A DNA stretch of 64,000 nucleotides. Origin: Desulfosudaceae bacterium (GTDB lineage Bacteria; Desulfobacterota; Desulfobacteria; Desulfobacterales; Desulfosudaceae). Below the pieces are notes generated by a model that was not told the origin of the DNA, ran no database searches, and saw nothing but the letters and a program-made list of their open reading frames with translations. Shown here piece after piece: positions 8,641 through 59,523 of this stretch. Made by a program: the position numbers and the translations under genes. Location: NCBI GenBank assembly GCA_963674745.2, contig CAXXDV010000001.1:1792001-1856000 (forward strand), read 5' to 3'. Position 1 is the stretch's first letter. The number at the start of each line of letters is the position of its first letter.

Positions 8641-9996
8641 TTAAAGCAGGTCGGAGGCAATCTCGGCTAAAAGGGACCGTTCACCTTTTTCCATGGTTAT
8701 ATGGGCATAGATTTCCTGCCCCTTCATTTTGTCTATCAGGTAGGTCAGGCCGTTACTGCGCGAATCCAGGTAGGGCGTGTCGATCTGGTAAGGATCACCG
8801 GTGAAGACAACCTTGGTGCCTTGACCGGCGCGGGTGATAATGGTTTTGACTTCATGGGGCGTCAGGTTCTGGGCTTCGTCGACAATAAAGTATACCCAGG
8901 GCAGGCTGCGACCCCTGATGTAGGCCAGGGCTGTTATGAGCAGCTTGCGTTTGCTGATCATGTCGTTGATTCGCTGATATTCCGAGGAAGTTTCGGAAAA
9001 CTGATTTTGAATGACGGACAGATTGTCGAACAACGGCTGCATATAGGGGTCCAGTTTGTCTTCAATATCACCCGGCAGGTAGCCGATGTCGCGATTCGAC
9101 AGCGGGATGACCGGGCGAGCCAGAAATATCTGCTTGTAATCCTTTCGCACCTGGAGCGCCCCTGCCAACGCCATCAACGTTTTGCCGGTGCCGGCCTTTC
9201 CGGAAAGGGTGACCAGTAAAATGCGGGGATCCATCAGTGCCTGCAGGGCGAAAATCTGTTCGGCATTGCGGGGTGTAATCCCATAGGCCCGTTTTTTTTC
9301 CACCAGATTCAGGGTCGCCTCTTCTTTGATGCAGGTGGTCAGTATGCTCTGGCTGTCATTCCGGAGAATAAAATTTTCATTGGGGAACGGGTCGAGTTCC
9401 AGGCCGGTTTCGCTGATCGGTACAAAACCGTTTTTAAATATCCGGTCGATGGCATCATGATTAACACCTTCGATCAGGTTTTTGCCGCTGTATAGATCGT
9501 CAATGTTTTTTATTTTACCGGTTTCATAATCCTCGGCCTGGATGGCAATGCTTTTGGCCTTCATGCGAAGGTTGATATCTTTTGATACCAGGACAACCCG
9601 CTCATAGCCGTGATCGTATGCCAGTTTATAGGTAATGGATAAAATGCGATGGTCCGGTTTGTCCTCCCAAAAGTACTCTTTGAAATGCTCGTCCTTTTTC
9701 TGGCTTGTTTTGACGACGACACATCCGCCGGATTCCAATTCGACACCTTCATTCAGCAGGCGTTCACCGATGAGTGTATCCAGCTCCCGTGTAAATTCCC
9801 GGGCATTGAAGTTAATGGTTTCGTGTCCCCGTTTGAAATGATCGATTTCCTCCAGCAGGGTTATGGGCAGAACCACATTCTGGTCTTTAAAAGAGTAAAT
9901 CGCGAGGAAGTCATAAAGAACCACGCTGGTATCAAGGACAAAAATTTTTTTCTGGTTAGAGCTGAGTAATGATTGATTTGGCAATCCTTTAGTCAT
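8641..9996 (-). CDS. PIN + PhoH ATPase protein (PhoH2/YlaK type)
   Basis: VLDTSV PIN start, SKDINLR, Walker A GKAGTGKT, IRGRS, DEAQN. Confidence 0.92.
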   Translation of the reverse strand: MTKGLPNQSLLSSNQKKIFVLDTSVVLYDFLAIYSFKDQNVVLPITLLEEIDHFKRGHETINFNAREFTRELDTLIGERLLNEGVELESGGCVVVKTSQKKDEHFKEYFWEDKPDHRILSITYKLAYDHGYERVVLVSKDINLRMKAKSIAIQAEDYETGKIKNIDDLYSGKNLIEGVNHDAIDRIFKNGFVPISETGLELDPFPNENFILRNDSQSILTTCIKEEATLNLVEKKRAYGITPRNAEQIFALQALMDPRILLVTLSGKAGTGKTLMALAGALQVRKDYKQIFLARPVIPLSNRDIGYLPGDIEDKLDPYMQPLFDNLSVIQNQFSETSSEYQRINDMISKRKLLITALAYIRGRSLPWVYFIVDEAQNLTPHEVKTIITRAGQGTKVVFTGDPYQIDTPYLDSRSNGLTYLIDKMKGQEIYAHITMEKGERSLLAEIASDLL

Positions 9997-10340
9997 CTCC
10001 TGTGTTTTTGAGGATTTGGAGAAAACGGGGGCACCTGAAATTTATATGGCGTCAAGGCTTGATCGGTTCCTGGTTTCCCCCTTTTGATACCTCTTTTATA
10101 CAACAATTGAGCCGATTTTTCCAGTATTTCTTTGTTAGTAAATCGTTCAAACGGGTAATTGAACCGGGAACCGGCCGTTACTGAAAATTTTCCTTGCATT
10201 TTCAAAGTGCTTATCATAAAAATAATTCAGCTTCGTTTGGATTGACGGGCCGGTTTCGTTCTGAAGGTAGCATCCATTTGTTTAAAGTGGGACCCTTAAG
10301 TTCTGGAACCAAAAACATTAACGAAAGGAGGGTGTCACTT

Positions 10341-10541
10341 ATGAACAAGGGTGTTGTAAAATGGTTTAACGATAGTAAAGGCTTTGGGTTTATCGAGCAG
10401 GAAGACGGACCGGATGTGTTCGTTCATCACACCTCAATTAACTCAAGCGGCTTCCGTTCTCTTAACGAAGGCGACCATGTTACGTTTGAAATTGAGCAGG
10501 GTGAAAAAGGTCCTGCGGCTGTTAACGTAACGGTTGTGTAA
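10341..10541 (+). CDS. Cold-shock protein
   Basis: [12 protein letters not shown] and DVFVHH RNP motifs; SD AAGGAGG upstream of ATG 10341. Confidence 0.96.
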
Positions 10542-10653: not shown

Positions 10654-11058
10654 TCAGGGCCGGGACAGAAATTTAAGTGTCAGGCCGAGCACCATCACCA
10701 TCAGGCCGATATAGAACCACTTGATGTCTTCCAGGCCGGCAAACATCAGCCCGAGGCCGATAAGGCCGACAATCCAGGCATTGACCGCCAGAACACCCGA
10801 TATGCCCTCCGTGCCGGATGCCGGGGCTGCCGGTTGTTGAGAAGATGACGGGGGCCCGATGATCCTGGCGGCCCGTTCCAGTTCCGAGGCCAGTACTTTC
10901 AATATTACGCCCTGGGTCAGTCTTAACTGGGGATACATGCCGCCGCAATCATCCTTGACGATAAGCGCCTCGATGCCTTCTGACAGCAGCCGTCCCCTGA
11001 CGATTTCGGCTTCGATCTCGGTCGTAAAGGATTGAAACGTTACAAATCGGTCTTCCAT
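10654..11058 (-). CDS. DUF2007-like signal-transducing protein with C-terminal TM helices
   Basis: EAEIVRGRLLSEGIEA...GVILKV...ERAARII pattern followed by two hydrophobic segments. Confidence 0.7.
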   Translation of the reverse strand: MEDRFVTFQSFTTEIEAEIVRGRLLSEGIEALIVKDDCGGMYPQLRLTQGVILKVLASELERAARIIGPPSSSQQPAAPASGTEGISGVLAVNAWIVGLIGLGLMFAGLEDIKWFYIGLMVMVLGLTLKFLSRP

Positions 11059-11189
11059 GAATCACCTTTGTGAAAAGTAGACTTTAACAAGGCATAATAA
11101 AAAATTTTAGCACAGATGCTCAGGGGTGTCGACAGGTTCGGTGCAAAACCGTCTTTCCAAAAAAGGTTCAGGCTTTCTGACCGGATATG

Positions 11190-11227
11190 GAAAAAGTAAA
11201 GCCCGCTTTAGTAAAAGCGGGCTTTAC
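11190..11227 (-). terminator. Intrinsic terminator ending the unannotated RNA
   Basis: Minus strand GTAAAGCCCGCTTT-TACT-AAAGCGGGCTTTAC followed by TTTTT. Confidence 0.8.
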
Positions 11228-11547
11228 GCGTCGGGTCTTCCATGACCCTTATACATTCCCATCGTGGAAACGCCGCACATGAGAATAGCGGTTAAATAAA
11301 GATGGCCGTGTAACCCCTTTGCGGGTGATGTCCGGCGGAACCGCTTAAGAAGGACAGCCCTTTCGGGGTAATATTGAACCGTTACCAATTCAGGGCGGAT
11401 CAGGGAAAATCCGCCCCGGTTTACATAAGGGGTGGAAGGAGCGATTGCCTGCCGCCATCACCTTGATCGGGATTACACGCCATCGATAATAAAAACAGCG
11501 ATAGAAATTTTTCTTGACTGACGTATTTTTATTTTACCGCCATTTTT
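11190..11547 (-). ncRNA. Unidentified structured non-coding RNA (~360 nt)
   Basis: Sits in a ~650-bp gap with no credible CDS; nested long-range stems with minus-strand G-U pairs; TTGACA upstream; terminator downstream. Confidence 0.6.
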
Positions 11548-11551
11548 AATG

Positions 11552-11580
11552 AGATAATCACTGATAAAACATAATGTCAA
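11552..11580 (-). promoter_or_regulatory. Candidate sigma70 promoter for the ncRNA
   Basis: Perfect TTGACA (11580-11575); only an imperfect -10 (TTATCT/TATCTC) at 17-18 bp. Confidence 0.4.
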
Positions 11581-11716
11581 GCGAAATGATGTCTAAAAAA
11601 GATTAATATTTATACCTGTTTCGAAAGGGCGCAAGGGGGGTATTCGGCGGTGAATGCTGACAGATCCGTGCTTTTGTGTACTTTTGTGTCGGATGAGGGC
11701 GTCTGTGCAGACTGTC

Positions 11717-12475
11717 TTACTTCTTTTTCAGGCCGGCCAGTAGATCCTTGACCCGCTGGCGGTTATCCGGTGCGCCGATATATGAGCGGAACAGCCATTC
11801 CTGGGTCTTCATGGCGCCATCTAAGTCTTTGTCCACCAGCAGATGGGTCAGTTGCTTGGTCTCGGCCAGGCATTGAGGATCATATCCGGCCATGGTTCTG
11901 GCAATCGGCAGGACAGATTGCAGCAGTTCGCCTTTGGGAAACACCCGGCTGACATATCCCATCCGTTCGGCTTCTGCGGCATCGTAAATGCGGCCGGTGA
12001 AAGCAACTTCTTTGGCGCGTCCCAGGCCGATGATCCGCCACAGGGGATCCATGATGGGGGGCAGGGACAGTGGCATTTCACGTTGCCCGAATTTGGCGTT
12101 TTCGGATGCGTACCGGATATCACACATCATGGTCAGATCGAATCCGCCGGCAATGGCCGGGCCGCCGACAGCCGCAATCACGGGCCTTCGGCAAAACAGA
12201 ATGGATCGATAAGCGCCATGAAAAAGAGCAATAAAGTCTTCGTTGGCGTTTTTTTCCATCTGTCCAACGACATCAAGATCAAACCCGGCGGAAAACATTT
12301 TTTCTCCACCGGTCAGTATCACCACATTCACGTCGGGTGTGTTGTTCAATTTTGTAAACAGCGCTTCTATTTCTGCCAGCACGTCAGGGGACAGAGCGTT
12401 TCCCTTTTCCGGGCGACTGATGGTGACCACCGCCACTTTTTCGTTCGTCTGTATTTTCAGGTACGTAAATTCCAT
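11717..12475 (-). CDS. Enoyl-CoA hydratase/isomerase family protein
   Basis: FSAGFDL, AIAGGFDL, CDIRYASENAKFG; SD AGGTGA precedes ATG 12475 (the ORF-track start is over-extended). Confidence 0.9.
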   Translation of the reverse strand: MEFTYLKIQTNEKVAVVTISRPEKGNALSPDVLAEIEALFTKLNNTPDVNVVILTGGEKMFSAGFDLDVVGQMEKNANEDFIALFHGAYRSILFCRRPVIAAVGGPAIAGGFDLTMMCDIRYASENAKFGQREMPLSLPPIMDPLWRIIGLGRAKEVAFTGRIYDAAEAERMGYVSRVFPKGELLQSVLPIARTMAGYDPQCLAETKQLTHLLVDKDLDGAMKTQEWLFRSYIGAPDNRQRVKDLLAGLKKK

Positions 12476-12525
12476 CGTCCTCACCTGTTTTTTAAAGTCG
12501 TTTACAAAAGAGCTGCTGCCGCCTG

Positions 12526-12960
12526 TCAGGAATGCAACTTTGTGCTTCGCACCAGGGTCGGCGCTAACAGCAGCATTGCCACCGAGGTGGGCGGACCATT
12601 GATGAAAAAAACCGTCAGGGAAAATGCGTATGCCACCGAAGAGGTCCTGTTTATCGACAGAGACGCTTTTGCCATCGGGTTGATGATGTAAAAAAGCAGA
12701 TCCGCGATTGTCAGCAGGATCAGTCCCCAGGCTGCCCATTTTTTCATATCCCAGGCGCCGATGCCGCAGATCACAAGGGGCAACATGAATAGCAGGTACT
12801 TGTACCCCATCAGTGCCAGTTGATGCTCGGGCAGGCTGGTCGGTTCCGATCCCAGCCAGACAAAGGCCTTTAATACAGCCAGCCAGCCAATGGCCCAGAC
12901 CGGCCATGGATAATCCGTGTGCAGGCGCTGAGACATTATCCGTTGTGATTTATTTTTCAT
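12526..12960 (-). CDS. Hypothetical multi-pass membrane protein
   Basis: SD CAGGAG before ATG 12960; about four hydrophobic segments. Confidence 0.65.
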   Translation of the reverse strand: MKNKSQRIMSQRLHTDYPWPVWAIGWLAVLKAFVWLGSEPTSLPEHQLALMGYKYLLFMLPLVICGIGAWDMKKWAAWGLILLTIADLLFYIINPMAKASLSINRTSSVAYAFSLTVFFINGPPTSVAMLLLAPTLVRSTKLHS

Positions 12961-59447: not shown

Positions 59448-59523
59448 GCCCCCGTAGCTCAGTGGATAGAGCAATGGATTCCTAATCCATGTGCCGCAAG
59501 TTCGATTCTTGCCGGGGGCACCA
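59448..59523 (+). tRNA. tRNA-Arg (anticodon CCT)
   Basis: Acceptor GCCCCCG/CGGGGGC + ACCA; anticodon arm ATGGA-TTCCTAA-TCCAT; T arm GCAAG-TTCGATT-CTTGC. Confidence 0.96.

Follow-up and report, generated by a model that had tools for sequence, protein, structure and literature searches.

A family of stand-alone structured small RNAs in two Desulfobacterales genera, with a possible place in the CsrA network

The 64,000-nt stretch of DNA analysed here (the window) comes from a Desulfosudaceae bacterium (assembly GCA_963674745.2, contig CAXXDV010000001.1, positions 1,792,001 to 1,856,000), whose 5.5-Mb genome is assembled in three contigs and is 99.96% complete. Within it, positions 11190 to 11547 had been marked in an earlier note, made from the letters alone, as an unannotated, strand-specific structured RNA (the original prediction). 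We find that this locus is a stand-alone noncoding RNA (ncRNA) gene, one of a new family in two genera of one Desulfobacterales family, and we call the RNA abundant. The gene sits in a 658-nt intergenic gap on the minus strand, between two minus-strand genes; it begins at a strong promoter of housekeeping type, ends in an intrinsic terminator, and is neither the leader of the next gene nor a repeat. In window coordinates, the locus is laid out as follows:

11545 to 11191, minus strand: predicted small RNA (sRNA) of about 355 nt, both ends read from the sequence; evidence from fold z-score, single copy, homologues and RNA contigs
11552 to 11586, minus strand: promoter (context TTTCGC, -35 TTGACA at 11580-11575, 14-nt spacer, TG at 11560-11559, TTATCT at 11557-11552)
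11191 to 11227, minus strand: intrinsic terminator (14-bp stem 11227-11196, then UUUUU), kept in six of six members
11717 to 12907, minus strand: open reading frame (ORF) of an enoyl-CoA hydratase (ECH) gene, upstream of the RNA gene
10654 to 11058, minus strand: small DUF2007 gene, downstream of the RNA gene

Comparisons within the family covered 13 genomes: three of genus g1 (the window's own genome, G000, with G001 and G002), three of genus g4 (G005, G008 and G011), two of g5 and five of g2, g3 and g6 together, with completeness of 99% for G002 and 71-87% for G001 and the three g4 genomes. The six g1 and g4 genomes carry the element, and the locus has the promoter, the terminator, the lack of coding potential, the six homologues and the RNA-library contigs of a stand-alone sRNA gene, its transcript ends and strand being deduced. 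The promoter joins a perfect -35 to an extended -10 with a weak hexamer (TnnnnT), and the layout TTGACA-N14-TG-N-TnnnnT recurs at identical spacing in every member; the TTGACA that the original prediction had noticed just upstream is part of this conserved promoter, from which transcription would start at about 11545. At the other end, the terminator's U tract follows the stem on the minus strand only, and the g1 and g4 loci share no ORF of at least 15 amino acids (aa) on either strand. A riboswitch or 5' leader was rejected because what lies downstream varies: G000 and G001 have DUF2007 there, g4 has another gene, and G002 has a convergent ORF; in the window, DUF2007 is preceded by a promoter-like site of its own at 11132-11104.

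The promoter region also provided a candidate family marker, the 14-mer TTTCGCTTGACATT around the -35 (window 11573-11586), of which a single copy is present in each of 26 of 401 Desulfobacterales genomes (reversed control, 6 hits). This marker was dropped, as the same 14-mer fronts tRNA genes (L069, L071, L082 and L083) and several protein genes at its other loci (L066-L091) in the order. Since it precedes tRNA genes elsewhere, it points to a generic strong sigma-70-type context, a local form of housekeeping promoter, and resembles a strong-promoter context, made of an upstream element and the -35, that is conserved within Desulfobacterales.

Evolutionarily, the element is narrowly distributed. 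BLAST over 61 related genomes gave genuine matches only in G001 and G002, so that all three g1 genomes have it, and a covariance model of the central domain built from g1 (R1), which scored 190-217 bits on the three g1 members, found nothing beyond that genus among the 13 family genomes and 151 genomes of the order. Two pattern scans over metagenome contigs returned 0 loci each, and one over genome contigs returned only G001's own contig. In G002 the assembly breaks inside the element, where the start of contig C8 and the end of contig C9 overlap by 127 identical nt, so the RNA locus is contiguous there as well. Because the ECH gene lies upstream in all three g1 genomes, the DNA behind its orthologs was compared across the whole family, and a diverged version of 297-305 nt was found behind ECH in all three g4 genomes, with an identical promoter context, the long rod, C-rich motifs, two hairpins with GGA in their loops and a similar terminator. 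The element thus follows the hydratase gene in six of six carriers and ranges from 297 to 380 nt in size, while in the seven genomes of g2, g3, g5 and g6 other genes occupy the space behind ECH and no homologue of the RNA was found there.

A 3'-domain model built from all six members (R2) scored 78-95 bits on them, with the next best match in the family at 37.7; over the 151 order genomes, 65 had matches at E≤0.05, and all except those of G000 and G002 (78-89 bits) stayed at or below 38.4 bits, the best 12 of these other matches being plain terminators behind genes or tRNAs, which we rejected as members. A model built from g1 alone (R3) ranked the three g4 elements first at 35-37 bits, a small margin over hard decoys that reached 33.5. 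Homology across the two genera therefore rests on synteny, promoter, module order and the R3 ranking taken together. An ECH tree groups g1, g4 and g5 into a single clade (89/88 support) without resolving the branching within it.

Structurally, the six members share one plan, consisting of a 5' stem-loop, a long rod with a strong closing helix, an exposed C-rich tract at or near the tip of the rod, and 3' hairpins followed by the terminator. In the window, its parts are:

11491 to 11547, minus strand: 5' stem-loop, AAAAAUGGCGGUA (11547-11535) pairing with UAUCGCUGUUUUU (11503-11491), apex variable
11301 to 11484, minus strand: central rod domain, closed by helix P1 and then GGUGAUG/CAUCACC, inner part branched in the minimum-free-energy (MFE) fold
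11427 to 11441, minus strand: C-rich tract 1, CUCCUUCCACCCCUU, with ACCCC invariant in six of six
11391 to 11418, minus strand: hairpin CGGGGCGGAU / AUCCGCCCUG with loop UUUCCCUG, in the MFE fold
11344 to 11354, minus strand: C/U-rich tract 2, UCCUUCUUAAG, of which UCC..CUUA is kept in g1
11256 to 11270, minus strand: hairpin H1, UUUCC-ACGAU-GGGAA
11233 to 11248, minus strand: hairpin H2, GGGUC-AUGGAA-GACCC, a six-base loop with GGA

The 358-nt stretch folds (RNAfold) at an MFE of -147.7 kcal/mol, compared with -101.3 ± 5.5 for dinucleotide shuffles (z -8.41; none of the 100 did as well), and the plus strand of the same stretch reaches -135.0 (z -5.34), which bears out the earlier claim of a strand-specific structure. 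Consensus energies likewise favour the transcribed strand over its reverse complement (-97.0 versus -79.2 kcal/mol in g1, -87.5 versus -71.4 in g4), and four of the five homologues folded singly gave z of -4.9, -3.6, -6.0 and -6.3. The g1 consensus fold has 94 pairs, with 92.1% of 277 cells paired, and 13 of its pairs are changed on both sides, against 6.9 ± 1.9 in shuffled alignments (0 of 500 reach 13) and 2-4 with slid partners, a count flattered by deriving the structure from the same sequences on which it was tested. For the three g4 members the consensus has 95 pairs, of which 9 are changed on both sides, in a MAFFT alignment that is not structure-aware. Collecting homologues, as had been suggested, thus yielded relatives with compensatory changes.

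RNAfold recovers most of the helices listed in the original prediction. The 5' stem has 13 pairs, including the three G-U pairs described there (U11542-G11496, G11541-U11497 and G11537-U11501), and corresponds to helix 1 of the alifold consensus (11 pairs, 96.6% of cells paired), weak in G002; in the MFE fold of G000, its 5' strand UGGCGGUA pairs with AACCGCUAU (about 11293-11285) rather than with the partner first drawn, which is the one conserved in relatives. The proposed 184-nt domain is present, with its closing helix P1 (GAUGGC-GUGUAAUCCC at 11484-11469 with GGGGUUACAC-G-GCCAUC at 11317-11301; 18 alifold pairs with 92.6% of their cells paired, and two-sided changes at 2 of them in g1), GGUGAUG/CAUCACC, and the 10-bp hairpin at 11391-11418, which is alifold helix 5 (9 pairs, 2 changed on both sides). 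A comparable long closing helix and rod are found in g4. The inner helices CGGC/GCCG and AAUCGCU/AGCGGUU exist in the window sequence and are kept only partly in homologues, while GGUAA/UUACC and the CCC-GAAA-GGG tetraloop are absent from the MFE fold as drawn and are not kept in homologues, so we do not retain them.

The small 3' hairpins and the terminator with its U tract had been listed too, but the pair of GGA-loop hairpins before the terminator, the most conserved element, had been overlooked. H2 is the best-conserved element besides the terminator: in its core, GGUCAKGGANGAC, 11 of 13 positions are invariant in all six members, and the six-base loop A-(G/U)-G-G-A-N reads AUGGAA, AGGGAU, AGGGAG, AGGGAG, AGGGAA and AGGGAA across the six, with an unpaired probability of 1.0 in G000, G001 and G002. 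The H1 loop carries GGA in five of six, and its stems (UUUCC/GGAAA, UCUCC/GGAGA and UUCCC/GGGAA) differ among members by paired changes. The distance from GGA to GGA between H1 and H2 is 18, 22, 24, 20, 19 and 19 nt in the six members, and G001 carries a third GGA-loop hairpin. The H2 motif GGUCANGGANGAC matched 25 times in five non-carrier genomes, against 40 for the reversed control, and among 20 of those 25 matches none was followed by the family terminator.

Transcription had been named as a check, and the RNA is seen in four sediment RNA libraries (from three studies) that share words with 11100-11700 and were aligned over 10900-11900. Five contigs of 151-201 nt, 93-99% identical to the window and with a depth of 2-4.4, were placed, every one of them between 11252 and 11579. 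The stretches 10900-11251 and 11580-11900, in which the terminator and parts of both flanking genes lie, received none, and contigs of this kind cannot show absence. The variants they carry agree with the fold. In the 5' stem, all three pairs survive U11542>C, C11539>U and G11537>A, and A11483>G keeps its P1 pair as G-U; U11444>A breaks a U-G pair of an inner helix whose pairing is flawed in G001 too, and G11358>A breaks the GAAA mini-hairpin, itself absent from homologues.

As to known families, Rfam 15 searched over the whole window at gathering scores returned only a tRNA gene (59448-59520, plus strand, 72.2 bits), and in E-value mode the region gave only terminator-like matches of at most 26.7 bits (at most 31 bits when the G001 and G002 loci are included), in line with the earlier failure to match a catalogued RNA. 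The "6S-like rod" then entertained does not hold: the 6S model (RF00013) has no match in 10900-11900 even at E≤10, nor across the window at gathering score, and a canonical 6S RNA lies elsewhere in the genome (G000:C1:1982781-1982963, 89.7 bits against a gathering score of 46.4). Genomes usually carry one 6S RNA, sometimes two. With the true 6S elsewhere, the reading as a divergent 6S fails, and the large central bubble resembling an open promoter, the hallmark of 6S, is missing from the new RNA, whose rod leads into either a branched core or an apical loop rich in C. Also located elsewhere in the genome were RNase P RNA (303 bits), tmRNA (195 bits) and SRP RNA (57.9 bits). A MITE or dispersed repeat, the alternative originally set aside for checking, was rejected, as the genome holds one full-length copy and other matches cover at most 44 nt of the query, at E of at least 0.3 except for the terminator palindrome; plasmid and phage collections gave no match to the element.

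These results bear on a group of explanations under which the locus would be a 6S RNA that has diverged, a neighbouring gene's cis-acting leader or 3' untranslated region (UTR) element, a mobile repeat or a chance fold. The rod-like shape, the invariable position behind the hydratase gene (six of six) and an RNA contig that extends to 11579, and could reflect co-transcription with that gene, speak for it. We nevertheless hold this group to be very unlikely, given that the canonical 6S, RNase P, tmRNA and SRP RNAs are accounted for, promoter and terminator are the RNA's own and are conserved, the gene downstream varies or is convergent, the element is single-copy without plasmid or phage matches, and its conservation comes with compensatory changes.

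Functionally, the GGA-loop hairpins direct attention to CsrA. The passages on binding sites in PMC7652899 give RUACARGGAUGU as the CsrA consensus from SELEX (the systematic evolution of ligands through exponential enrichment), place GGA mostly in six-base hairpin loops on short stems, and have the CsrA dimer bridging sites 10-63 nt apart. In the new RNA, GGA in a loop of about six bases on a short stem was found in H2 of six of six members and H1 of five of six, 18-24 nt apart. The same source, where it treats antagonists, describes FliW as acting on CsrA via an extended CsrA C-terminus, and sRNA antagonists of CsrA as known mainly from Gammaproteobacteria, with fliW anti-correlated with them (PMC7652899).

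The distribution of these proteins in the family runs alongside that of the RNA. All six carriers (g1 and g4) have both CsrA and the RNA, and FliW and flagellin were found in none of them; in the sister genus g5 (two of two genomes), flagellin, FliW and CsrA are clustered and the RNA is missing; and none of the RNA, CsrA, FliW and flagellin was found in the five genomes of g2, g3 and g6. CsrA itself is 61-70 aa long in carriers and about 84 aa, with a long C-terminus, in g5. In the window's own nearly complete genome, no Hfq, FliW or flagellin was found, and there are two intact csrA genes in non-flagellar neighbourhoods plus a third csrA-like frame broken by two TAA codons:

G000:C2:55832-55987, C3:11135-11284 and C1:1211468-1211593: csrA and csrA-like frames

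One of the intact csrA genes, on a 131-kb contig, stands between a molybdopterin oxidoreductase gene and a radical-SAM gene. A crude screen of the own genome for CsrB-like clusters of GGA loops placed its top seven 300-nt segments all in long open frames and yielded no second sponge candidate.

From these sequence features we posit, with a probability of roughly 0.4, that the RNA acts in the CsrA network as a CsrA-binding sRNA. H1 and H2 would present GGA, each in a loop of five or six bases, at a distance of 18-24 nt, a geometry suited to both faces of a CsrA dimer, so that the RNA would hold CsrA off its mRNAs, or CsrA would control the RNA, in organisms that retained CsrA, appear to have lost its usual partner FliW along with the flagellum, and lack Hfq. 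The rod with its C-rich tract may serve to stabilise the RNA, to hide the GGA loops or to engage G-rich ribosome-binding sites by pairing. A further-reaching version, in which the RNA came to serve as antagonist or partner of CsrA in a non-flagellated, Hfq-less lineage of Desulfobacterales that retained CsrA without FliW, making it a new, structurally unrelated class of CsrA-binding sRNA outside Gammaproteobacteria, with a two-hairpin clamp and, on the rod, a C-rich arm to cover the GGA loops or to pair with the G-rich sites usually occupied by CsrA, strikes us as somewhat unlikely on the present comparisons.

Several observations weigh against a role in the CsrA network. Members have 1-3 GGA-loop hairpins each under a strict rule, which is not above dinucleotide shuffles (P 0.02-0.68), and only 4-8 GGA in total, whereas established CsrA sponges bear many more GGA sites. 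The window copy's H1 loop is one base off and has no GGA (ACGAU, not AGGAU). None of the Csr/Rsm models matched, the best being CsrB in G001 only, whose 15 bits (E 0.66) fall short of the gathering score of 71. The rod and the C-rich tract, which make up most of the RNA, are unaccounted for by CsrA binding. Since g1, g4 and g5 form one clade with an unsettled inner order, the co-occurrence of RNA, CsrA and absent FliW may be a single event, and any trait of that clade would correlate with the RNA; the three g4 genomes and G001 are, besides, only 71-87% complete. The RNA data are assembled contigs at a depth of 2-4.4 that carry neither strand nor end information, and one of them (93% identical, from an oligo-dT library) extends to 11579, upstream of the deduced start, which points to transcription running on from the hydratase gene, to carried-over DNA or to a wrongly placed start.

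The C-rich tracts, the part of the RNA for which CsrA binding gives no account, would be central if the RNA were instead a base-pairing sRNA that works without Hfq, in which the rod presents one or both tracts to the G-rich Shine-Dalgarno (SD) sequences of several mRNAs and blocks their translation, and the GGA hairpins are structural or stabilising. Tract 1 reads CCACCCCUU, CAACCCCCU or UCACCCC(A/G)(U/A) across the six, so that YCACCCC is nearly invariant around the invariant ACCCC; it lies in an apical hairpin loop of 13-23 nt in g4 and G002 and in a multiloop in G000 and G001, and its unpaired probability (G000, G001, G002) is about 0.3-1.0, mostly 0.4-1.0. The second tract is also kept, as UCC..CUUA in g1 and CUCCCCCU in g4, with unpaired probabilities of 0.85 in G000, 0.44-0.65 in G001 and 0.42-0.49 in G002. 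As the tracts are conserved and mostly unpaired, the SD pairing proposed in the original prediction stays possible, the tracts themselves having stood up and the pairing keeping the rank of a conjecture. A likeness of the tracts to the anti-SD tail of 16S rRNA was dropped, not being kept in G002. The own genome is without Hfq, and RsaE/RoxS and RepG are said to work through C-rich loops without it.

A scan of the two C/U tracts against 67,136 crudely defined start regions of the own genome (mean -10.1, sd 4.0 kcal/mol) ranked first the G-rich 5' UTR of a gene for a sigma-54 activator, whose duplex reaches -30.2 kcal/mol:

G000:C3:2030549-2032015, minus strand: gene of a sigma-54-dependent activator, best predicted partner of C-rich tract 1

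The activator's G-rich 5' UTR, with two G runs just before the start, is kept in the G011 ortholog (L134). However, G011 is the only one of the five other carriers with an ortholog, none having been found in G002 despite its 99% completeness, so no conserved target emerged, and because C-rich tracts pair with any SD, the scan is low in power. The invariant core of the tract is also just 5 nt, and the GGA hairpins are better conserved than the tract, which C-rich pairing leaves unexplained. On balance we rate pairing through the C-rich tracts, the main rival to the CsrA reading, as somewhat unlikely, though CsrA binding and C-rich pairing could coexist in one RNA.

The GGA and C-rich motifs might, alternatively, meet each other in an internal loop-loop contact, the RNA being part of another ribonucleoprotein or a structural or catalytic RNA. 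For a simple sRNA, both the length of 297-380 nt and the stability of the fold are out of the ordinary, the GGGA loops are complementary to UCCC tracts in every member, and the g4 alifold structure pairs UCYCUGCC with GGUCAGGGA. Short loop-tract complementarities are, however, many in six sequences and show no clean or consistent covariation; the structure is mostly rod with no sign of a complex conserved core, and the narrow distribution speaks against a housekeeping role. We consider such an assignment improbable.

Set beside known systems, the CsrA-binding reading finds its nearest parallel in CsrB, CsrC, RsmX, RsmY and RsmZ (Rfam clan CL00106), which like the new RNA are stand-alone sRNA genes ending in an intrinsic terminator and carry GGA in the five- or six-base loops of hairpins with short stems, and the host here likewise has CsrA without FliW. 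The G001 H2 CAGGGAUG and its extra hairpin CAAGGAUG fit the CARGGAUG portion of the consensus, and the spacing of the two sites falls inside the bridging range, both as given in the binding-site passages of PMC7652899; the same passages count 22 GGA in E. coli CsrB, compared with 2-3 GGA loops here. Further differences are that the GGA loops are not enriched over shuffles and no covariance model matches, that two thirds of the new RNA is a long rod with a C-rich tract, absent from Csr/Rsm sRNAs, and that it belongs to Desulfobacterales rather than Gammaproteobacteria and has a generic strong promoter. 6S RNA resembles it as an abundant rod-like RNA from a housekeeping-type promoter, but the new RNA fails the 6S model, has no central bubble and is twice as long. 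RsaE/RoxS of Firmicutes and RepG of Helicobacter are reportedly about 90-115 nt long with several C-rich repeats. They share with the new RNA exposed C-rich loop motifs, a host without Hfq and G-rich ribosome-binding regions as expected targets, whereas here one or two tracts stand at the tip of a 180-200-nt rod, with no Rfam match. McaS of E. coli is said both to pair with mRNAs and to bind CsrA. SR1 of B. subtilis is linked with CsrA in the portions of PMC7652899 and PMC6546359 that deal with it. The likeness to McaS and SR1 lies in few GGA sites plus a separate single-stranded region able to pair with mRNA, and such a two-function layout would explain both conserved motifs; the new RNA has no sequence or model similarity to either, is much longer and more structured, and both of its functions are proposed from sequence.

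We file the locus as a new family of stand-alone bacterial regulatory sRNA, outside the 6S and Csr/Rsm families. To our knowledge, regulation by small RNAs in sulfate-reducing Desulfobacterota is almost unmapped. The literature consulted on small or structured ncRNAs of Desulfobacterales, Desulfobacteraceae and sulfate reducers describes nothing resembling this RNA, and the nearest work, a 50-genome survey (PMC11109978), describes a different motif, upstream of gcsH. The locus is a concrete candidate that bears on CsrA control in bacteria without FliW and Csr/Rsm sRNAs, and even if the CsrA link fails, it still adds a new RNA family whose limits are clear and whose promoter, architecture and motifs are conserved.

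The surroundings of the gene offered some minor observations. The hydratase ORF is listed as 396 aa and orthologs align to its last 253 aa only; AGGUGAGGA stands 5' of an AUG near 12478 within it, where the orthologs point to a start, so the ORF as listed is probably over-extended or encodes a protein with a lineage-specific N-terminal part. In G001, the adjoining locus (L040:189-536) contains a 5' UTR resembling the cspA thermoregulator (55.9 bits against a gathering score of 78); the counterpart neighbourhood in the window (10194-10541, plus strand) has a cold-shock-domain gene and no Rfam match at gathering score. Two genes downstream of the RNA, at 8641-9996 on the minus strand, lies a fusion of a PIN domain with a PhoH-like ATPase (PhoH2 type).

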